DNA of 7,370 bases from a virus (Duplodnaviria; Heunggongvirae; Uroviricota; Caudoviricetes): positions 1 to 7,370 of IMG/VR virus record IMGVR_UViG_2681813313_000015; one strand, written 5' to 3'. A program made the position numbers and the translations under genes. The notes under the pieces were generated by a model. That model was not told where the DNA came from. It searched no databases and saw nothing but the letters and a program-made list of their open reading frames with translations. This document shows, piece by piece, positions 1-7,370 of the stretch. How positions within the stretch are numbered: the first letter of the stretch is position 1; each line of letters opens with the position of its first letter.

Positions 1-1020
1 CTACTTGCTAACCACGAGCGGCAGATCCAGTGTTGGTGTGATTTTTGTTTTACGATCGTAAATCAACACCTGATTTTCTGTTTTATGCCCGCTGAAAATT
101 TGTTTGTCGCGACTGCTGCCTTCGTAATCTGAGATCCCCTTAGCTTTTATGTCGTGAAAATTGCACCCGAACGGAACGCCAACTTTTTGCTCGGCTGAGC
201 GTTTAGCCTGATTCCACCAGTTGTTCAGCGTTTTAGCTATGACTTTCCCGCCTTTGGTTGTATTGATCACATATTCGCATGTACAGGAAGATACATTTCG
301 GGCTAACTGGATCGCTGTACGTAATCGCGGTGACCATTCCTTGATTTGTTTGGTGCCGGTTTTGTTTTGCTCAATGTAGATCCCTTTATCCATAATATCC
401 TGCCATTTCAACTCAAGCACATCACCGAGCCTTGCCGCACAGAGATAGGAAATCTCCATTGCAATGCGTAACTGTGGAATTGCTTCCGCATATATCGCTG
501 CATACTGTTCATCGGTGATGTAAACAGTGCGGGCTTTAAGAGAGAATTTTCTGACTCCTTTACATGGGTTATTCTTCACGTATCCACGCTCATATCCCCA
601 CCCGTATACTCGACTCAGGCTTGCCAGTTCATGATTTGCCTGGGTCTTGCTCTCAAGCCCTCGTTTATCCATGAAAATTCTTACCTGCTCAGTTTTGACA
701 TTATCAGCAAGCACTTTTCCGAATACCATCAGCAACGCCTTCTGATGTTGTCGATAATCTTTTTGGGTTCGGGGGGCCAGTTCTGTAAATGCAGGGGAGT
801 CTATAAACATGTGCCATAATTTAGCTACGGTCATTATGTTGTGGAGTTTTGCTTTTTCCAGTTCATAATTTTGCCAGACTTTAGCTACGCTGGTTTTCCG
901 CACTCTTCCTAGCCCTATAGTTCTTGTACTTCCTTCTGGTTTCCACACGTAACTGTAACCATTCGATCTAACCCGCGGTGGCAGTACATTATCTTTTTTA
1001 TTTTTTCTTGGTCTTCCCAT
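1..1020 (-). CDS. int: Phage integrase, tyrosine recombinase (lambda Int family)
   Basis: 339-aa ORF. N-terminus MGRPRK..LPPRVRSNGYSYVW..GLGR resembles the lambda Int arm-binding region. Catalytic region aligns by eye to lambda Int: AARLGD (R212), EQNKTG (K235), FHDIK (H308-x-x-R311 position), SGHK (H333), LIYDRK (Y342). Stop codon at 1-3. Confidence 0.9.
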   Translation of the reverse strand: MGRPRKNKKDNVLPPRVRSNGYSYVWKPEGSTRTIGLGRVRKTSVAKVWQNYELEKAKLHNIMTVAKLWHMFIDSPAFTELAPRTQKDYRQHQKALLMVFGKVLADNVKTEQVRIFMDKRGLESKTQANHELASLSRVYGWGYERGYVKNNPCKGVRKFSLKARTVYITDEQYAAIYAEAIPQLRIAMEISYLCAARLGDVLELKWQDIMDKGIYIEQNKTGTKQIKEWSPRLRTAIQLARNVSSCTCEYVINTTKGGKVIAKTLNNWWNQAKRSAEQKVGVPFGCNFHDIKAKGISDYEGSSRDKQIFSGHKTENQVLIYDRKTKITPTLDLPLVVSK

Positions 1021-1240
1021 TATTCAGCGCCTCAAAATCGGGTTCAGCAGAAACCAGTTCAGATGTTTTTGGCATCGTTGTCAGTCCGTGTGGAATATCC
1101 CTGCGTAGAACTATTGGTTCGTTTTTAGGACCGATTACAAATGGGATGCCGTGCAGTCTTAACTGGTGTTGCTGTTTTGTGTATCGCTCGTATTTCGTGA
1201 TCTCTTTAATCTCTGCTGGAGATAGAGTTAATTCGTACAT
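998..1240 (-). CDS. xis: Excisionase-like protein (Xis)
   Basis: 80-aa ORF immediately upstream of int and overlapping its start by 23 nt, the classic xis-int arrangement. The N-terminus MYELTL and basic C-terminus NGKTKKK resemble lambda Xis (MYLTLQEW...NGKKAKS). Only a weak AAGG is present upstream. Confidence 0.6.
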   Translation of the reverse strand: MYELTLSPAEIKEITKYERYTKQQHQLRLHGIPFVIGPKNEPIVLRRDIPHGLTTMPKTSELVSAEPDFEALNNGKTKKK

Positions 1241-1307
1241 GTGGTCACGTGCCTTTACAGCATGACCGCCGCCACTGTAGCTGGTGGGCGGCGATATGGG
1301 TTGAACA

Positions 1308-3782
1308 TTAAAAATCAGCCTGACTCGGGATCAGTTTTTGCCAGATAGCTGAAACGTATTTTGCCTGATAACGGGCGTCATCAAGTGCATTATGGCGCTC
1401 ACCTTCGAATGGGATAGCAGTTCTGGCATCGAAGTCTATGGCTTTCCCCAGCTCAACGATTGTGCGTACATCGCGATCGTTGTAGTAACGCCACGGGCAG
1501 GGGATCCCCTGCCGTTCGTATGAACGGCGCAAAATCGTGTTGTCGAAGTTGGCTCCATTTCCCCAGACCTGAACAAAAAATTCACCGGAGTTTTCGTCGA
1601 TAAATTCCCGCAATTGTAACAGTGCATCATCTAACGGGATTTCATCGGTCATAATGGCAGACTGCGCTTCACGTGATTGCTTCAGCCACCTTTTAATGAC
1701 GTCACGATCAATGACTCCGCCAGCAGTTTCCAGATCGATAGTCTTACTAAATTCCGGTCCCATATCTCCGGTTTGCGGATCGAAAAATATTGCACCTATT
1801 GAGATAATCGGGGCATCCGGATTTTTTCCCATGGTTTTAAGGTCGATCATTAGATGGTCACACGTCCTGCTGGTGGATGTGATAACGTGATGACCGTTCA
1901 CCGTAATTAAGGGATCTGCCGTCTCGCCAGTTTCACTATCGCTGGCGTGGTCCTGAGCGCTGCCAGCATTCTCCTTGTGTGGATGTTCAGCGCCTTCCAT
2001 TTTCTCCGAATCGTCTTCCTGAACTTCAACCTGGTTCTTGTCATCGAATGTTTCCTGGTATGTTGCGTCGCCCATCACCGCGCCACAATCAGGGCAGTTG
2101 CCGCCGCCGGTCTGACCGCAGGCGGTGCAGATTTTTTCCGGTTCCTGTTGCGCTACTGGTTCAGGTTGTTTCGTTTCTGGCTCGTTTTGTAACGCATTTG
2201 GGCTGTTTTGTTCCGCTTTCTGGCCGTTCTGTTCCGTTTCTTGCTGGTTCTGATTCACTGAATCGCGGGTTTCAATCCCCTTCACCCATTTCGGATCATT
2301 CGGGTCGCTAATCCCTGCAACAAATTCACCACGTGATACAGCAAGCAACTTATTGGCGTCAGGCTGGCTGATATTGGCTGCCTGCATAATTTTGTTTACT
2401 TCGTCAGCGGTAACTTTTACCGGCTCTGGTTGTGCGATCGTGTCAGATGCACCAGTATTTTGTTGTGAACCTGAGTACGTGCCGTTTTTACGTGCGAAGT
2501 ATTCCTCTTTTGTGATTTCCGTAGCTCCCAGGGCCAGTGCTTTTTCCAGACCAGAAAGTTTGTTTGCGCGACCGTATTTTTCGCCGTCCTTATCAGTGAA
2601 AAGGAAGTAGAACGGTCCCTCACGCTCTACAGATGGTTCGTCTTCCACTTCGCATTCGGTTTTTTCGTTGTCCGGCATTGCCGTTTCCACTGCATCAGTT
2701 TCTGGTACTGGTGACGGGAGAGTACCAGCTGTGCCCTGATTTGTTCCTTCGTCATCTTCAAACACGCCCTTGGTAGTCAGGTATTCAGTGATGTATTTGT
2801 TCAGTGCTACGGGATCTTTGTGAATGTCGATCGGACGCTCACGGACAAGGCCAAAAATAGTCTGACGGTCGTAGCGAACGGCATCGGGTTGTTTGCGCAT
2901 TGATGCGGAAATGTGCTTCCAGTCTTCGCGATCTTTGTCGATAACTTCATTTTTTGCCCAGCGATGGATGCTGCCGTCAATGTTTCCGGTATCAATATCG
3001 CCAGGCCAGAGAGCGTAGGCCAGTTCTTCATCCAGCGTTTTCCATGTCTGCTTGTATTCGCGACAAATGGCGGCAGTGACTGGGTTGATTTTTCCTGCTG
3101 AGTTTTCAGTGTTCTGTTGATTGACTCTGGCGCTGGCGAGATCAACAACAGACGTGTATTTTCCAGTCTCTTTGCGCTCTGCGTCCTGCCGTTTTTTCCA
3201 GTTACGTAATTCAGCCTGAATTTCGGGCCATTTGGCACCCGGATTACATTTGTGTTTAACCCATCCGATAGCGAACAGTTTGCGTTCCGGATACATAGCG
3301 TTAATTTCAGGCGTTTTCATCAGTGCTTCAACGATATGCCCGTCAAAGGTAGCAACGTCTTCCTGCAGTAATTCCTGCGCGTCAATCGCCATATCAACGG
3401 TGATGTTTTCACATGTACCGAACTTAACCAGGACCGCGTTCTGTACTTCAAGGGACAGCTTGTCAAAATTGACGTTCATCGGATCGGATTCTGGTTCGAC
3501 CGGAATAAAGGAAGCGGATTCCTCATCCCAGCGGTTTTCCTGCATATATTCAGCATCCCAGGAATCGAGGGCAGGGCGGGGTATACCGGGTTTATCCTCG
3601 CAAACAAGAAATTTATAAGCGCAGTCCTGAGCAGCCGGATAATGTTCCAGGAATTGCCAGTGAAATTTTGCGCGGGCGCGACGTTCATCACCGGCTTCAA
3701 TGGCAGTGGCTACAGCGACGGCACCTTCTTCCTTTATTGCCTGTTCATCAGGAATAGCAGCGCAAATAAAGACCTTACTCAT
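1308..3782 (-). CDS. Large multidomain prophage exonuclease (exodeoxyribonuclease VIII/RecE-like annotation family) with C-terminal DEDDh-type 3'-5' exonuclease domain and an internal zinc ribbon
   Basis: 824-aa uninterrupted ORF with ATG at 3780-3782 and GAGG about 10 nt upstream. C-terminal ~190 aa (nt ~1311-1892) carries DnaQ-like motifs: MIDLKTMG...IISIGAI, TIDLETAGG, GNGANFD, HNALDDA. Zinc ribbon C552-x2-C555-x6-C562-x2-C565 at nt 2088-2129. Central region LLAVSRGEFVAGISDPNDPKWVKGI is recalled as typical of ExoVIII-annotated prophage proteins; that recollection is unverified. Confidence 0.8.
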   Translation of the reverse strand: MSKVFICAAIPDEQAIKEEGAVAVATAIEAGDERRARAKFHWQFLEHYPAAQDCAYKFLVCEDKPGIPRPALDSWDAEYMQENRWDEESASFIPVEPESDPMNVNFDKLSLEVQNAVLVKFGTCENITVDMAIDAQELLQEDVATFDGHIVEALMKTPEINAMYPERKLFAIGWVKHKCNPGAKWPEIQAELRNWKKRQDAERKETGKYTSVVDLASARVNQQNTENSAGKINPVTAAICREYKQTWKTLDEELAYALWPGDIDTGNIDGSIHRWAKNEVIDKDREDWKHISASMRKQPDAVRYDRQTIFGLVRERPIDIHKDPVALNKYITEYLTTKGVFEDDEGTNQGTAGTLPSPVPETDAVETAMPDNEKTECEVEDEPSVEREGPFYFLFTDKDGEKYGRANKLSGLEKALALGATEITKEEYFARKNGTYSGSQQNTGASDTIAQPEPVKVTADEVNKIMQAANISQPDANKLLAVSRGEFVAGISDPNDPKWVKGIETRDSVNQNQQETEQNGQKAEQNSPNALQNEPETKQPEPVAQQEPEKICTACGQTGGGNCPDCGAVMGDATYQETFDDKNQVEVQEDDSEKMEGAEHPHKENAGSAQDHASDSETGETADPLITVNGHHVITSTSRTCDHLMIDLKTMGKNPDAPIISIGAIFFDPQTGDMGPEFSKTIDLETAGGVIDRDVIKRWLKQSREAQSAIMTDEIPLDDALLQLREFIDENSGEFFVQVWGNGANFDNTILRRSYERQGIPCPWRYYNDRDVRTIVELGKAIDFDARTAIPFEGERHNALDDARYQAKYVSAIWQKLIPSQADF

Positions 3783-3868
3783 TTTGTTTTAACCTCATTA
3801 CAGATTTCAGGGTGAACGAATCCCTGCCATTGCTGGCATTTTTAATCCGTTGGTATGGTGTTAATATG

Positions 3869-3888
3869 GCTGGAGGGTTATCCAGCCG
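3869..3888. other. Perfect 7-bp stem hairpin GGCTGGA-gggtta-TCCAGCC overlapping the stop codon of the 62-aa gene, upstream of the exonuclease gene
   Basis: Direct reading. A T-rich run (GGTGTTTCGTTATT) follows on the plus strand only. Role unknown. Confidence 0.4.
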
Positions 3889-4066
3889 GTGTTTCGTTAT
3901 TCAGGTACAGCGATACTTTTTTTACCGGGAGGCATTCACCAGAAATTTTTTGCTCGTCTCTTGCCTGGAGGCAGGATTCTTTACTGGCATAAATTCTGGT
4001 AATCACATTCTGTGATTCACCCGTTATAAGAAAAACCGTCATCATCAGTGCAAATGCTGAAGTCAT
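3878..4066 (-). CDS. Hypothetical small protein with hydrophobic N-terminal segment (possible membrane or secreted peptide)
   Basis: 62-aa ORF. Its ATG overlaps the stop of the upstream gene (ATGA on the minus strand at 4063-4066). SD-like GGAG lies 7 nt upstream. N-terminus MTSAFALMMTVFLITG is hydrophobic; two Cys residues. Function unknown. Confidence 0.5.
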   Translation of the reverse strand: MTSAFALMMTVFLITGESQNVITRIYASKESCLQARDEQKISGECLPVKKVSLYLNNETPAG

Positions 4067-4251
4067 TGACGTTCTCCGAAAATACCAAGTTCAAGAAGAG
4101 CAATTCGGGAAAGTATGGAATTATCATTGAGCAGATAAGGCTCATATTTCCTCATATTAATGGCATCTTCAGTAAACTCCCGGTTACTGAGCAGAACACC
4201 AATATCAAAACAACCTTCAGACGTATTAACGTTTGGTAATAACGTTTCCAT
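4063..4251 (-). CDS. Hypothetical protein (62 aa from ATG at 4251; a GTG-initiated 97-aa form would extend to 4356)
   Basis: The ATG at 4249-4251 is preceded by GAGGA with 7-nt spacing. The stop overlaps the start of the next gene (ATGA), indicating translational coupling. No recognisable motif. Confidence 0.5.
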   Translation of the reverse strand: METLLPNVNTSEGCFDIGVLLSNREFTEDAINMRKYEPYLLNDNSILSRIALLELGIFGERQ

Positions 4252-4283
4252 TATCGCGTCCTCAACAATGAATTTTGTGATGC

Positions 4284-4327
4284 GGTGCCTGGTGCCTCCA
4301 GGTGACGTTAACCAGTTAACAATTAAC
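4284..4327. repeat. Short tandem repeats: GGTGCCT x2 (4284-4297) and three TTAAC units (4308-4312, 4316-4320, 4323-4327)
   Basis: Direct reading. Lies upstream of the ATG at 4251, inside the GTG-extended form of that ORF. Confidence 0.5.
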
Positions 4328-4503
4328 GCCGGATACAGAGAATCCACCCATAACACTGTTTTTGGTTTTAACTGTTCCGCGTGCGCTCAGCCGCATTCAC
4401 CGCATCACAAAATTCACTTTAAAAACGGCGGCAGAGCAGTCACGGAGTAAAACTGATACCGCCAAACGTCACCAGAAAATTGATAACAGAGGGCGTTGCA
4501 GCG

Positions 4504-4540
4504 GGGTTGTCACTTAAGCGTATGGTCAACCTGACAACCC
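4504..4540. repeat. Perfect 9-bp inverted repeat GGGTTGTCA-N19-TGACAACCC in noncoding DNA
   Basis: Direct reading of the sequence. Not followed by a T-tract on either strand, so it is not a canonical terminator. Confidence 0.6.
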
Positions 4541-4754
4541 GGTGTCCTCAACGGGGGAAGGAATAACCCCGCCATACTTACCGCCGCGCCATTTCGCGGG
4601 TTGCCACAACCGGAAGCGCACGGTCGAATTAAATTTAACGACACCGTACAGTGAGACGAACTTCGCCGTGCGCTTTCGTGTTGTGTGCCTGCTTTTAACC
4701 ACGTCAGGCGAGGTGGTATCCTTCTTATCCCGAATAACCAAGAAGGAAATCTAT

Positions 4755-4955
4755 ATGACTAAAGAAGAATTTGTCTCTTATATTTTTGATAAAACGGTTG
4801 AAATGTATGCCGCTACTTACGGGTCCTGTAATCCTCTGAATAAACCAGAGGGGAAAGATGATTTCGACAAAATTTACCGCTTCTTGGAGGACCGCTATAT
4901 CAAAAGGTTAGAGGACGCAGGGATCAAATCCCCAGTGAAGTCACCATTGTCCTGA
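4755..4955 (+). CDS. Hypothetical 66-aa protein, moron-like gene convergent to the early-left operon
   Basis: ATG at 4755 preceded by AAGGA (4743-4747) with 7-nt spacing. AT-rich composition. The in-frame upstream extension (from GTG at 4542) has no RBS. Its 3' end overlaps the convergent minus-strand gene by 32 nt. Confidence 0.5.
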   Translation: MTKEEFVSYIFDKTVEMYAATYGSCNPLNKPEGKDDFDKIYRFLEDRYIKRLEDAGIKSPVKSPLS

Positions 4956-5289
4956 GAACTTGCAGGACGTCATGATCGTAACTTCCATCCAAACCGCGAC
5001 GGCAAATTGCTTCTCGTATTACCGGAAGCAGTTCGCTGGAAATCTCGGTGCATATTTCACCTGATAATACGCTTGGCTCAAGTGAGAATATTGGTGAACT
5101 TACGGTCTTGGTCTCGACAGTTTCAGAGTCAGTGCCAACATTATAAAGCTCAACGAAAGCGGTCTTGATTTTCCGGGCCAGATCTTTTGCTGGCTCGCTT
5201 GCAATATCTTTCCCGATTTCTCGCAGCACAGAATGCAATGTATGAGCTGCTGTTTTCTGTACATCAGACGGTAAATCTTTAAATTCCAT
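4924..5289 (-). CDS. Hypothetical mildly acidic protein (121 aa from ATG at 5289; alternative ATG at 5301 gives 125 aa)
   Basis: The ATG at 5287-5289 is preceded by GAGG with 6-nt spacing. The alternative ATG at 5299-5301 overlaps the upstream stop (TGATG). Second gene of a coupled pair downstream of the putative PL/OL. No recognisable motif. Confidence 0.55.
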   Translation of the reverse strand: MEFKDLPSDVQKTAAHTLHSVLREIGKDIASEPAKDLARKIKTAFVELYNVGTDSETVETKTVSSPIFSLEPSVLSGEICTEISSELLPVIREAICRRGLDGSYDHDVLQVLRTMVTSLGI

Positions 5290-5300
5290 CGTCAGCCTCA

Positions 5301-5453
5301 TCAGTCAGTGTTTCTGGCTAACCAGCAACGCGCGCCAGATCCGGTTTTAAACGTTTTGCTTTTGGTATATGTCATCGCGGTGAACGTACCGCCCTGGTTG
5401 GGGAACACGCCGTACACCAGAGATTCGTTGTTGCCAAGATCGATAGTATCCAT
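5301..5453 (-). CDS. Hypothetical small protein (50 aa from ATG at 5453; the track's 81-aa form starting at 5546 is probably not translated)
   Basis: The ATG at 5451-5453 is preceded by GAGGT with 4-5-nt spacing. The upstream ATG at 5546 lies inside the operator and promoter spacer and has no SD. Confidence 0.4.
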   Translation of the reverse strand: MDTIDLGNNESLVYGVFPNQGGTFTAMTYTKSKTFKTGSGARCWLARNTD

Positions 5454-5530
5454 GTTGACCTCATTTCCCCTTAACGCCGGGGTAGCGGAACTGTTTGCTG
5501 AGAACACCGTGCGGTGTCTTGATGGATCGT

Positions 5531-5582
5531 AATTTAGTTTTCTCATGAATATTGGTCAAGTACTTTTAATGAGAAAACTCAA
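5531..5582 (-). promoter_or_regulatory. OL/PL-like operator pair and leftward early promoter
   Basis: Two inverted copies of the operator motif (5534-5546 as the complement of ATGAGAAAACTAA; 5569-5582 ATGAGAAAACTCAA) flank a 22-bp spacer. On the minus strand: -35 TTGACC (5559-5554), 17-bp spacer, -10 TAAATT (5536-5531). Confidence 0.55.
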
Positions 5583-5587
5583 TATTT

Positions 5588-5627
5588 AATGCAAAATAAA
5601 GCCAATACATTGAAATGTAAGGCTTTA
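5588..5627 (-). terminator. Putative intrinsic terminator downstream of the repressor gene
   Basis: Interrupted hairpin (outer stem TAAAGCC/GGCTTTA at 5597-5603 and 5621-5627; inner stem TACAT/ATGTA) followed on the minus strand by UUUUGCAUU. The stem is AT-rich, so it is weak. Confidence 0.35.
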
Positions 5628-5644
5628 AAATTTGTGAAGGGGGG

Positions 5645-6052
5645 TTATTGATGTTTGTTACGTTTGCGAGCTTCTAGTAGCTCGGTGAATAGGCGATTAA
5701 AATTCTCAACGCGGGCACGGAGTTCGCTGATTTGTGCTTGCTGCTCTGATTTTGGAAGTGCGCGATACAATCGCAACATCTCCAACTCATCTTCCGATAA
5801 GTCTAAGGCGCTGTTGAGTGCAACTGGTGGATCTGGTGTTTTATCCTCGTCACCAAACAGTATCCAAGTTGGTGAACATTGCAATACCTCAGCCAGGCGA
5901 TGCAAATTTTGCCCGCGCGGGGCTGTATGGTCGCTTTCCCATAGTGAAATTGATGAGCCAGATACGCCAGCAGCTTTGCTTAAATCGTTTTGACTTAAAC
6001 CAACCTGTTTGCGTCTTTCTCTAATTCGTTGACCTAAAGTTTTCTCGTTCAT
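5645..6052 (-). CDS. Prophage immunity repressor, XRE/cI-type HTH, without an S24 peptidase domain (RacR-like)
   Basis: 135-aa ORF. N-terminal HTH_3-type motif (GQRIRERRKQVGLSQNDLSKAAGVSGSSISLWE). Divergent from a Cro-like gene across a 77-bp region carrying palindromic operators. No Ala-Gly/Ser-Lys autocleavage module was seen. Confidence 0.85.
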   Translation of the reverse strand: MNEKTLGQRIRERRKQVGLSQNDLSKAAGVSGSSISLWESDHTAPRGQNLHRLAEVLQCSPTWILFGDEDKTPDPPVALNSALDLSEDELEMLRLYRALPKSEQQAQISELRARVENFNRLFTELLEARKRNKHQ

Positions 6053-6073
6053 ATTTAGATATCTTAATAACCC

Positions 6074-6116
6074 TTGACTTGAGATTCCTTGAGTGATTAC
6101 TATTGAGAAAACTCAA
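6074..6116. promoter_or_regulatory. OR-like divergent promoter/operator region between repressor and cro-like gene
   Basis: Palindrome TTGAGAAAACTCAA at 6103-6116, extra TTGAG half-sites at 6079-6083 and 6089-6093, and -35-like TTGACT at 6074-6079. No clean -10 could be placed. Confidence 0.6.
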
Positions 6117-6129
6117 CTTTGGAGGGGTG

Positions 6130-6357
6130 ATGTTTAAATCAGACGTAATTAATTTTTATGGGACGAAAGCCAAAGTAGCGAAAGCTGCTGGTGTTGATCC
6201 ATCTGCTGTTTCTCAATGGGGGGAACTGGTTCCTGAAGGTCGCGCGATGCGCCTGCAAGAGGCATCCGGCGGGGAACTTCAGTACGACCCCAAAGTTTAT
6301 GACGAATATCGTAAGGCAAAGCGGGCGGGGCGGTTGAACAATGAAAATCACCCCTGA
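6130..6357 (+). CDS. Cro/YdaS-like small HTH regulator
   Basis: 75 aa from ATG at 6130 with GGAGG 4 nt upstream. Contains the motif FYGTKAKVAKAAGVDPSAVSQW typical of Cro/YdaS-like proteins. The track's TTG start at 6103 would place the first codons inside the operator palindrome. Confidence 0.8.
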   Translation: MFKSDVINFYGTKAKVAKAAGVDPSAVSQWGELVPEGRAMRLQEASGGELQYDPKVYDEYRKAKRAGRLNNENHP

Positions 6358-6892
6358 ACAGGTTTGTGAGGCTCTGGATGCCTGGGTATGCCGACCAGGA
6401 ATGACACAGGAGCAGGCGACGATATTAATCACGGAAGCATTCTGGGCTCTGAAAGAACGCCCGAACATCGATGTTCAACGCGTCACGTTTAATGATGGCG
6501 AGGTTGATCAACGGGCGCTGGGCGTTAACCGGGTGAAGATATTCGAACGCTGGAAAGCTATCGACACCAGGGATAAGCGGAAAAAATTCACGGCGCTGAT
6601 TCCGGCAATTATGGAGGCTATCCGAATTAGTGATTTCAGGCTGTATCGTGAGATCAGTGATGGAAAAAGCATTACGTACATGATCGCCGGATTAAACAAA
6701 GAATATGGCGATGTGGTGGAGTCCGGGCTGCTTTTTGCGGATCCAGCTGTTGTGGAACGTGAGACTGACGAGCTTATAGAAAAAGCTATTGCTTTCAAGC
6801 ATGCGTATCGTCAGCAATATCAATATTACTTTGCAGATAAACAAATGTCTGCCAGGGGTTCGTATGAGTATCGATGCACTACGATGGGCTAA
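6341..6892 (+). CDS. cII-like/YdaT-family protein
   Basis: 183-aa ORF overlapping the cro-like stop by 17 nt. The position (third gene of a repressor-Cro-cII-like trio) and the segment IFERWKAIDTRDKRKKFTALIPAIMEAI resemble Rac YdaT as recalled; the family assignment is unverified. Confidence 0.65.
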   Translation: MKITPEQVCEALDAWVCRPGMTQEQATILITEAFWALKERPNIDVQRVTFNDGEVDQRALGVNRVKIFERWKAIDTRDKRKKFTALIPAIMEAIRISDFRLYREISDGKSITYMIAGLNKEYGDVVESGLLFADPAVVERETDELIEKAIAFKHAYRQQYQYYFADKQMSARGSYEYRCTTMG

Positions 6893-7370
6893 AAAGGTGA
6901 AAACCGGCAGTTCATCCAGTAAGTCAGTATTGACCTGGCTTGCTGATATGTGCGGTGCCGATTTGTGTGCATACCCGTCTGTATCTGCCCTGGCAGAAGT
7001 AACGGAACTGAACAAAAAGACAGTGCAGGACAGCTTACGACACCTGATGGAGATTGGGTTAATTGTTGATACCGGTGAGAGAAAAGGCAGAACAAAGCAA
7101 ATTGTGGTGTACCGACTTATCGGTGTAGAAGAAAGTGTTGCCGAACCTGAATACACCCAAAAACGGGAGTCTTTAAAGGTGGGTAAAATTGGTGCTGTTA
7201 ATAAAAACAGTACCGAAAATGGTTATGTTTCAGCACAAAACAGACCCAAAAACGGAACTCTTAGCTGCATGAACCGCCCCGGGTTTCCTGGAGAGTGTTT
7301 TATCTGTGAACTCAGGCTGCCAGATCATCGTTTCCGATGGAAGCATAATAAGCTTTTTCTGCTTCTGCCG
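6864..7370 (+). CDS. Phage replication initiation protein, N-terminal HTH domain (lambda O-like role); 3'-truncated by the window end
   Basis: Read by hand: ATG at 6864 preceded by AGGGG (5-nt spacing), 169 codons with no stop to position 7370. N-terminus MSIDALRWAKKVK...LADMCGADLCAYPSVSALAEVTELNKKTVQDSLRHLMEIGLIV is typical of HTH replication initiators. Absent from the ORF track, presumably because it has no stop in the window. Confidence 0.75.
   Translation, partial: MSIDALRWAKKVKTGSSSSKSVLTWLADMCGADLCAYPSVSALAEVTELNKKTVQDSLRHLMEIGLIVDTGERKGRTKQIVVYRLIGVEESVAEPEYTQKRESLKVGKIGAVNKNSTENGYVSAQNRPKNGTLSCMNRPGFPGECFICELRLPDHRFRWKHNKLFLLLP
7155..7258. repeat. Iteron-like direct repeats CCCAAAAACGG inside the replication gene
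   Basis: Exact 11-mer at 7156-7166 and 7245-7255, with a degenerate copy CCGAAAATGG at 7213-7222. The copies fall in different codon phases of the ORF. Confidence 0.35.

Follow-up and report, generated by a model that had tools for sequence, protein, structure and literature searches.

What does a phage genome keep in several hundred base pairs (bp) that encode no protein? The question is raised by a stretch of 7,370 nucleotides (nt) of DNA from a virus of the Caudoviricetes, positions 1 to 7,370 of IMG/VR virus record IMGVR_UViG_2681813313_000015, referred to here at its full length as the window. A sequence-only reading had singled out about 400 bp at 4357-4754, with a perfect 9-bp inverted repeat and several small hairpins, and had proposed that this DNA might hold the promoter and leader of the adjoining gene of 66 amino acids (aa), a small RNA (sRNA), or a protein-binding site. 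Our analysis indicates that the stretch is very probably untranslated spacer within the early-left operon (dicBF) of an Escherichia coli lambdoid prophage resembling Qin and mEp460, read from the minus strand and carrying the sRNA DicF. This high probability is a joint one, for locus, DicF, modular folding and nuclease steps taken together. Within it, the identity of the locus, the presence of DicF, and the conservation and covariation of the fold are established by the present analysis; the nuclease sites placed in the window are predicted ones, transferred from K-12 experiments. The locus itself was already known, and the prophage copy tells nothing new about DicF.

DicF and its place upstream of dicB

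DicF, among the earliest bacterial regulatory RNAs described, gave the single match above threshold when the whole window was scanned with Rfam: minus-strand positions 4426-4477 matched RF00039 at 72.5 bits (gathering score 48; E = 5.6e-15), with model positions 1-52 of 52 covered. The full 53 nt, 4426-4478, differ from K-12 DicF by one mismatch, at the final base (G in the window, C in K-12). The RNA consists of a 5′ single-stranded seed, the same as the K-12 sequence that has been shown to pair with ftsZ and manX, and a GC-rich terminator hairpin at 4427-4463, which lies within the Rfam alignment and is followed by a run of five U residues (4421-4425); hairpin and U-run make up an intrinsic terminator and an Hfq-type 3′ end. 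A generic terminator scan missed this terminator because the hairpin loop and internal bulges fall outside the simple stem-loop rule of that scan. Upstream of the DicF 5′ end is an AU-rich single-stranded spacer at 4479-4503, containing CUGCAACGCCCUCUGUUAUCAAU. Here and below, features of the dicBF transcript lie on the minus strand. The earlier suggestion of a sRNA was sound insofar as DicF is encoded here; DicF, however, lies on the minus strand at 4426-4478, which had not been flagged, and the flagged hairpins belong to the precursor upstream, not to the sRNA. The strongest features of the region had been overlooked: DicF, the 13-nt core of a stem of about 24 bp, and a 19-bp long-range repeat.

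DicF was found in the location typical of it, within a DicA-controlled prophage operon and upstream of dicB, as marked by matches to DicB, HTH_3, DUF1391 and DUF1482. By Pfam, the minus-strand neighbours are the gene set of a Qin-type early-left operon, and the K-12 gene order dicA-ydfA-ydfB-ydfC-(dicF)-dicB-ydfD matches that of the window. The noncoding gap is wider than first stated and spans 4252-4754, because the 97-aa open reading frame (ORF) at 4063-4356 on the minus strand over-extends dicB; the Pfam DicB match (residues 1-62) and RefSeq place the dicB start further in, at an ATG at 4251, and not at the GTG that opens the ORF. Nor is such a gap unusual, as had been supposed, given that E. 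coli K-12 has the equivalent spacer, about 570 bp long, between ydfC and dicB. When 4252 to about 4650 was aligned to the K-12 ydfC-dicF-dicB spacer, there were a handful of differences, and upstream of about 4650 the two sequences diverge. An identical copy was found in an E. coli chromosome, and a BLAST search of phage genomes found a copy in phage mEp460 at 99.2% identity. Most complete E. coli genomes (4719 of 5426) carry related sequence, at a median of two places per genome and a maximum of eleven.

In K-12, termination at the U-run is reported to give the 3′ end of 53-nt DicF (PMC5069750; PMC9438474), and DicF is cut from a polycistronic transcript that starts at dicBp, no internal promoter having been found (PMC10448788). 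A 190-nt species needs RNase III and is lost in an rnc mutant, and the 53-nt species, or its 5′ end, depends on RNase E (PMC10448788). A 72-nt form has a 3′ end made by RNase III (PMC5069750). With Hfq, DicF pairs with the ftsZ, manX, xylR and pykA mRNAs, as the K-12 papers report; two genome-wide RNase III studies do no more than cite DicF.

In the window, the order of RNA modules from 5′ to 3′ is long stem, three-hairpin block, AU-rich spacer, DicF with its terminator, 19-bp duplex, and dicB. The long stem, seen in the minimum-free-energy fold and as repeats, is an imperfect stem-loop of about 24 bp at 4605-4686, with arms at 4663-4686 and 4605-4628; its core is a 13-nt repeat (4611-4623/4666-4678), and the AT palindrome TTAAATTTAA (4629-4638) sits apically in it. 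Counting 190 nt back from the DicF 3′ end, i.e., 137 nt upstream of the 5′ end, leads to about 4611-4617, inside the 3′ arm of this stem, which is presumed to be the RNase III substrate that sets the 5′ end of the 190-nt precursor. Phages of the cdtI type keep the long stem with a different sequence. The duplex downstream of DicF, found by repeat search (fold z = -6.66), is a perfect 19-bp long-range pairing of 4398-4416 with 4269-4287 and encloses a structured part of the dicB leader, about 110 nt long. A 72-nt RNA that began at the DicF 5′ end would stop at 4407, inside the duplex, and the duplex is presumed to be a second RNase III site that yields the 3′ end of the 72-nt form. Both cut assignments are supported by the fact that the predicted ends fall within the two long duplexes, the type of substrate that RNase III needs.

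The processing that we propose would run as follows. Transcription of the minus strand, from right to left in the window, would begin at the DicA-repressed promoter, and the three-hairpin block would form the 5′ part of the 190-nt precursor. RNase III would cut the long stem (4605-4686) and the 19-bp duplex (4269-4416), RNase E would cut in or beside the AU-rich stretch just 5′ of DicF to create the DicF 5′ end, and the intrinsic terminator (4421-4463) would stop part of the transcripts, so that cuts and termination combined would give the 190-nt, 72-nt and 53-nt DicF species. Mature DicF with Hfq would then pair with ftsZ, manX, xylR and pykA, with a block to division and altered metabolism as the outcome, and transcripts that read through would bear dicB and the recombination genes.

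The dicB Shine-Dalgarno (SD) sequence, GAGGA at 4259-4263, lies 5 nt past the duplex, with the AUG at 4251. The Rfam model STnc100 (RF02076) matches 4219-4428 on the minus strand over its full length, with 39.8 bits, below the gathering score of 47, and E = 3.4e-7. The dicB-leader module also occurs upstream of terB/tciA in P7, P1 and D6 (L012:2501-2616; L011:3842-3961), genes annotated by homology with tellurite or colicin resistance, or with inhibition of cell division, and it may be a 5′ untranslated region (UTR) shared by terB/tciA-like genes. We also observed two minus-strand copies of the 9-mer GUUGAGGAC, one at 4544-4552 in linker 2 of the three-hairpin block and one at 4258-4266 in the dicB SD region; the pyrimidine-rich loop (UUCCUU) of hairpin B in the block could pair with either copy, a 9-nt repeat within 500 nt being not unlikely by chance.

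A conserved three-hairpin block upstream of DicF

Between the long stem and the AU-rich spacer lies a conserved structured block (4490-4609, core 4502-4599), which the covariance model built here, R1, matches with 150.5 bits. Hairpin A, at 4584-4599, pairs CCGCG with CGCGG (4584-4588/4595-4599), and hairpin B, at 4552-4571, pairs CGGGG with CCCCG (4552-4556/4567-4571) around a pyrimidine-rich loop. Hairpin C, at 4504-4540, has a 9-bp stem, GGGUUGUCA/UGACAACCC, and a 19-nt loop. The inverted repeat GGGTTGTCA-N19-TGACAACCC of the sequence-only reading was recovered at 4504-4512/4532-4540, and the two smaller hairpins, the palindrome TTAAATTTAA, and the -10-like TGGTATCCT (4714-4722) are all present within 1-2 nt of the positions reported for them. 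As a bare repeat, the perfect 9-bp repeat is not significant: among 2000 dinucleotide-preserving shuffles of 4357-4754, 8.65% had perfect inverted arms of 9 bp or longer, 3-60 nt apart. The hairpins are judged real because they are conserved, with compensatory changes, in 67 distinct homologues, and the folding energy of the minus strand over 4415-4700 (z = -3.4) likewise speaks for structure. The three hairpins form a folded domain of about 100 nt, probably with a pseudoknot within it in which GUAUGG of linker 1 (4572-4577) would pair with CCAUAC in the loop of hairpin C (4520-4525), six contiguous complementary bases. The block has no match in Rfam at E values up to 10. Two further pairings were considered and set aside. 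One is a possible second pseudoknot, in which the UCCU loop of hairpin B would pair with AGGA of linker 2; it is present in several variants and not in P1. The other, suggested by the minimum-free-energy fold, would join linker 1 (GGCGGUA) to the 3′ arm of the terminator as an antiterminator; it is kinetically implausible and is not kept in P1 or in several variants.

The comparative check that the sequence-only reading had proposed, covariance and conservation of structure across homologues, was carried out and bore the hairpins out. A pattern scan of viral contigs gave 120 loci in 64 distinct versions, and alignment to R1 gave 67 distinct sequences, most of them drawn from a pattern that fixes linker 1 and part of the hairpin C loop (11 of 19 loop positions). 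Pairing was kept in 96.3% of cells. Changes on both sides of a pair were seen at 6 of 25 pairs, as compared to 2.3 +/- 1.1 in shuffles (six was reached in 4 of 500) and 0-2 with slid partners, and the covariation score was 0.062 against 0.041 in shuffles. Hairpin B is the most telling, with both-side changes at three of its five pairs and at least six different stems (CGGGG/CCCCG, CUGGGG/CUCCAG, CAGGUG/CACCUG, GGGU/ACCC, CAGGGG/CUCCUG, CUGGG/CCCAG) in which pairing is always kept; the window's own hairpin B has one C more than that of K-12. In hairpin C, pair 7 changes from U-A to C-G in four sequences and pair 2 from G-C to A-U in two, both changes being seen in the P1 clade. Covariation is uninformative on hairpin A, which is paired in 97% of cells, because that hairpin is nearly invariant. 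Of the pairs in the candidate pseudoknot a single one varies: U:A occurs in 62 sequences, C:G in three (P1), U:G in two, and C:A in none. P1 and its relative P7 differ at both positions together, and these observations suggest a pseudoknot. RNAalifold run on a plain MAFFT alignment had given an uninformative consensus with no compensatory pairs, the length-variable hairpin B being misaligned; that result was replaced by anchored counting and the model-based alignment.

The block recurs apart from DicF. In BLAST searches of phage genomes it was found at 88.7% identity in phage cdtI and in Stx2c phages, and at about 77% identity in P1, where it overlaps an annotated "dicF-like region" about 40 nt downstream of the C1-controlled ban promoters. 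P7 carries a further variant directly after the ban operator. R1 matches P1 with 95 bits, P7 with 91 bits, cdtI with 139 bits, and at least 60 prophage contigs. No diverged block was found in D6 or in the Klebsiella phage, both of which share the dicB-leader module only.

In 122 of 124 copies a stable hairpin with a T-run follows 45-82 nt past hairpin C, and 38 distinct downstream units were seen. The canonical DicF seed is present in 85 of 123 classifiable copies; the other 38 have different single-stranded segments and terminator hairpins, the non-DicF units including a cdtI type, a P1 type, a short DicF, and a UUGAUUACCUUUUGGCGGGUAU type. DicF thus appears to be one of several sRNA bodies on a common scaffold. 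At least six seed-plus-terminator units follow the block (L013, L015, L029, L034, L040, L054, L060, L090, L110). CCACAACA, similar to the GcvB-target consensus, is present in several of the non-DicF units. The cdtI-type unit has a CACAACA-like stretch, and it was considered as the enterohemorrhagic E. coli anti-sRNA AgvB; this identification was rejected, AgvB being located at a late-region moron site 3′ of PR′ with a different architecture. Upstream, the lambdoid copies keep a stem of 20-25 bp; a loose automatic count found a stem in 126 of 131 copies, a figure in which the P1 type is not cleanly separated, and in P1 and P7 a promoter occupies the position of the stem. In either layout the RNA would start shortly 5′ of hairpin A and end at the terminator, with a length of about 190 nt. 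In phage cdtI the series is cI terminator, pL-like promoter (11/12 consensus), long stem, block, terminator, second long-range duplex and first gene, and the Stx2c phages show the same series. In the cdtI and Stx2c phages the transcribed strand has no ORF of 55 aa or more from cI to the block, which leaves no N gene in that interval.

What might the block do? Our leading proposal, a tentative one to which we give less than even weight, is that it is a folded 5′ domain that stabilizes the RNA of about 190 nt and presents the adjoining single strand to RNase E and Hfq; an independent role of the block in trans is less probable still. More doubtfully, the block might be a novel class of phage regulatory RNA domain, present in lambdoid and P1-family phages, that heads repressor-controlled early operons and has interchangeable sRNA bodies. 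If so, DicF would be one cargo among at least five other seed-plus-terminator units in a wider modular system; the block might then work with a host partner, for example RNA polymerase, RNase E or Hfq, and its task might be to tune read-through of the next terminator or to launch different sRNAs as their common carrier. What had been treated as spacer at the 5′ end of the 190-nt precursor is a conserved, covarying and probably pseudoknotted domain. It offers a handle on how prophages package and control toxic sRNAs, and may also help to explain how the first early terminator is passed in phages that lack an N protein.

Several observations count against our explanation of the locus or against this use of the block. 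The nuclease sites are predicted for this prophage from its sequence identity to K-12. While the minus strand at 4415-4700 folds better than its shuffles (z = -3.4), the plus strand folds well too (z = -3.0), and wobble counts do not tell the strands apart (25 G.U versus 28 A.C), so that a call of the RNA strand from those counts was abandoned. Because neither fold nor wobble discriminates, the strand assignment rests on DicF, the U-run, the direction of the operon, and the K-12 experiments. Conservation of the segments fixed by the search pattern is overstated; in the copies found by BLAST alone (P1, P7, cdtI), the hairpin C loop is almost unchanged. Few independent events lie behind the covariation, most of them in the P1/P7 clade or among the variants of hairpin B. 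Finally, a Salmonella enterica prophage (L005:3644-3800, minus strand) has the long stem directly before a DicF-like RNA (60.6 bits) with a different 5′ segment, and lacks both the three-hairpin block and the second duplex. The block is evidently dispensable for such a sRNA, which weakens the guess that it helps processing. Given this prophage without the block, and D6 and the Klebsiella phage with the dicB-leader module only, the block is a separable module.

Alternative readings of the gap

The second-ranked view of what the block does is that it is a cis-acting element for transcription elongation, either like put of phage HK022 or as a leader attenuator, which sets the read-through past the DicF terminator. 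By modifying RNA polymerase, or by sensing a host factor, the block would control dicB, exonuclease, xis and int; DicF-type sRNAs would be partly a by-product, like lambda 6S RNA and StxS at PR′-tR′. We hold this to be unlikely. In its favor, the block comes first behind a repressor-controlled early promoter in four of five contexts: in P1 and P7 it begins about 40 nt past the ban promoters or operator, which C1 controls, it follows the pL-like promoter (11/12) in the cdtI and Stx2c phages with no N gene between cI and block, and in a further phage (L138) it lies about 320 nt past dicA. An intrinsic terminator comes next in those same 122 of 124 copies, none of the scanned window proteins gave a Pfam match to an N-type antiterminator, and the loops and linkers are near-invariant between P1 and the lambdoid phages, suggesting a common host partner. 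Against this, the block has no similarity to the HK022 immunity region, where R1 finds no match, and it has three hairpins and a putative pseudoknot where put has two stems (PMC9378689). Further, the terminated ydfABC-dicF transcript of K-12 is readily seen (PMC10448788), so termination is not efficiently suppressed; no segment was found in the block that could pair with the terminator's 5′ arm, the spacer is variable, and an expression platform of the riboswitch type is not evident. The window's own block, moreover, is about 1 kb from the expected promoter.

The reading as dicBF spacer has also to be set against the three readings of the gap that leave the dicBF transcript aside. That most of the gap serves the plus-strand 66-aa gene as promoter and 5′ leader is improbable, although its right edge does look the part. 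On the plus strand, comparison revealed a promoter-like sequence, TTTAACC-N16-TGgTATCCT (4694-4722), with a -35 TTAACC at 4695-4700, a 16-nt spacer, and the extended -10 at 4714-4722; this motif is conserved before three unrelated ORFs, homology ends right after it, the 66-aa ORF (4755-4955, plus strand) has a strong SD sequence, AAGAAGGA (4740-4747), 7 nt before its ATG, and the ORF belongs to a phage protein family, phrog_34441 (170 bits; RefSeq WP_000159335.1). Yet such a leader covers only 4690-4754, the remaining 440 bp or so being DicF and the dicB leader on the other strand. The sigma-70 match (TTAACC-16-TGgTATCCT) is weak, 8/12 with the TG of an extended -10, where the scan threshold was 9/12, and the scan reported no consensus promoter on the plus strand at 4600-4754. 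Moreover, the K-12 locus has neither the motif nor a plus-strand gene, yet has an equally long spacer. The earlier suggestion of a promoter and leader is thus reasonable for the rightmost 60 bp or so, and 4252 to about 4690 belongs to the minus-strand dicBF transcript; likewise, TGGTATCCT as a promoter candidate gains from the conservation of the motif and loses from the weakness of the match. Operator-like DNA sites for a dimeric regulatory protein, to which the perfect 9-bp arms with their 19-bp spacer would be suited, are very improbable. The arms of hairpin B, and of hairpin C at pairs 2 and 7, change in sequence and keep their complementarity, which is the pattern of RNA pairing and leaves a protein-binding site unsupported; the loop and linkers, not the arms, are the most conserved; and in this immunity type the operators lie on either side of the repressor gene (PMC10448788). 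Slighter still is the chance that the gap hides a gene for a small protein. ORFs do exist mechanically, of 71 aa (4526-4741, minus strand), 51 aa (4362-4517, plus strand) and 44 aa (4510-4644, minus strand), but the 71-aa ORF, the only one scanned, has no Pfam match, and RefSeq annotates no gene in the gap. Length changes of 1, 3 and 4 nt within hairpin B (4552-4571) among close homologues would shift the 71-aa and 44-aa frames, and the window and K-12 themselves differ by 1 nt in hairpin B; since the reading frame is not kept, coding is ruled out.

The right edge nevertheless has a character of its own. Many loci match the window perfectly to about 4723 and then diverge, and the motif stands 32-37 nt before three unrelated plus-strand ORFs, each with its own SD sequence: the 66-aa ORF of the window, which is antisense to the dicBF operon, a 106-aa membrane-like ORF (L016:1895-2215), and a 92-aa ORF from Salmonella (L005:3852-4130) with a faint zinc-ribbon match. 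There was no meaningful Pfam, NCBIfam or PADLOC match for the three, and sequence variation in the 66-aa ORF was too low for a selection test. From these alignments, it is about an even call that there is a cassette ("moron") slot antisense to the dicBF operon, with a shared promoter-like sequence. Genes expressed from the lysogen, for exclusion or defence, could sit in such a slot. We also noted a perfect 8-bp inverted repeat, TCCTTCTT/AAGAAGGA (4719-4726/4740-4747, plus strand), that could sequester the SD sequence of the 66-aa ORF; with a start after the TGgTATCCT -10, the left arm TCCTTCTT would be only partly transcribed.

Of the neighbouring genes, dicB (4063-4251, minus strand) encodes a cell-division inhibitor of 62 aa (Pfam PF05358, 125.5 bits, full length; RefSeq of the identical record). 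It is followed on the same strand by a YdfD-like gene (DUF1482 by Pfam, 3878-4066) and a gene for an 824-aa exonuclease (1308-3782), then excisionase and integrase. On the other side of the gap are, again on the minus strand, a YdfA-like gene (DUF1391 by Pfam, 5301-5546) and a gene for a DicA-like helix-turn-helix repressor (5645-6052; Pfam HTH_3), in the order of K-12 Qin; beyond the repressor, P22-type Cro and YdaT are recognized by Pfam on the plus strand. The operon promoter, equivalent to dicBp, should lie between the DicA-like gene and the YdfA-like gene (5301-5546). In the exonuclease, Pfam recognizes only a C-terminal Rv2179c-like domain of the 3′-5′ exoribonuclease type (residues 643-814); the N-terminal 640 residues or so have no domain match and include acidic, Q/E-rich low-complexity stretches. 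Some host labels among the relatives deserve mention. Two contigs that bear DicF and are near-identical to the E. coli prophage (L007, L009) are labelled as Veillonella parvula and Collinsella sp. metagenome-assembled genomes, and are probably mis-binned E. coli prophage contigs. L138 (PP818812.1), deposited as an Actinobacillus pleuropneumoniae phage, has an E. coli-type dicA, block, kil and exodeoxyribonuclease VIII region, about 81% identical to the window, and its host assignment may be questionable.

Comparison with known systems

The closest known system is the Qin prophage of K-12, which shares with the window the gene order dicA, ydfA-like, dicF, dicB, ydfD-like, exonuclease, xis, int, as well as the DicF body, the terminator, the long stem and the 19-bp duplex, the DNA from dicB to the long stem being nearly identical. 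The two differ in that K-12 has ydfB/ydfC where the window has a 121/125-aa gene (phrog_33007) and the antisense 66-aa cassette, and in that the integrase and exonuclease genes of K-12 are truncated by IS2, whereas those of the window are full-length and the prophage looks complete at this end. The ban leader of P1 and P7 has the three-hairpin block at the 77% or so identity given above, with near-identical linkers and hairpin C loop, and then an intrinsic terminator. Unlike the window, it has no DicF seed, a different terminator hairpin and no RNase III stem before the block, and its downstream genes are tRNAs, tciABC and ban.

STnc100 is a candidate sRNA or leader of gammaproteobacterial prophages. 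The dicB leader aligns with the whole of its model, including the long closing stem, and the model also matches the leaders of P7 terB and P1 tciA. At 39.8 against 47 bits, the dicB leader counts as related to STnc100 and is not filed as a member, and it is here the 5′ UTR of dicB and not a stand-alone sRNA. To put of HK022 (PMC9378689) the block is analogous in position in the relatives, i.e., in the early operon, after a repressor-controlled promoter and before terminators, with no obvious N. This promoter-proximal position holds for P1, P7, the cdtI and Stx2c phages and L138; in the window the block is about 1 kb from the expected promoter. In structure, put has two stems in about 70 nt, and the block has three hairpins and a candidate pseudoknot in about 100 nt. 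A BLAST search of the HK022 genome with 4252-4760 gave chance 11-12-mers only, and R1 gave no match there at E up to 1; homology to put RNA was rejected on these two results, and put is retained as a functional analogy only.

The operon-internal or 3′-UTR-derived sRNAs SroC, MicL and CpxQ (released by RNase E), and lambda 6S RNA and StxS, which are terminated close to the promoter in lambdoid late operons, are likewise excised from or terminated within a longer mRNA, with stem-loops that flank the cleavage site and a terminator that doubles as the 3′ end of the sRNA (PMC9438474; PMC7547250). The reviews consulted describe no large folded 5′ domain for these RNAs. The DicF unit, in contrast, is bracketed by two presumed RNase III duplexes and has a large conserved domain 5′ of its seed.

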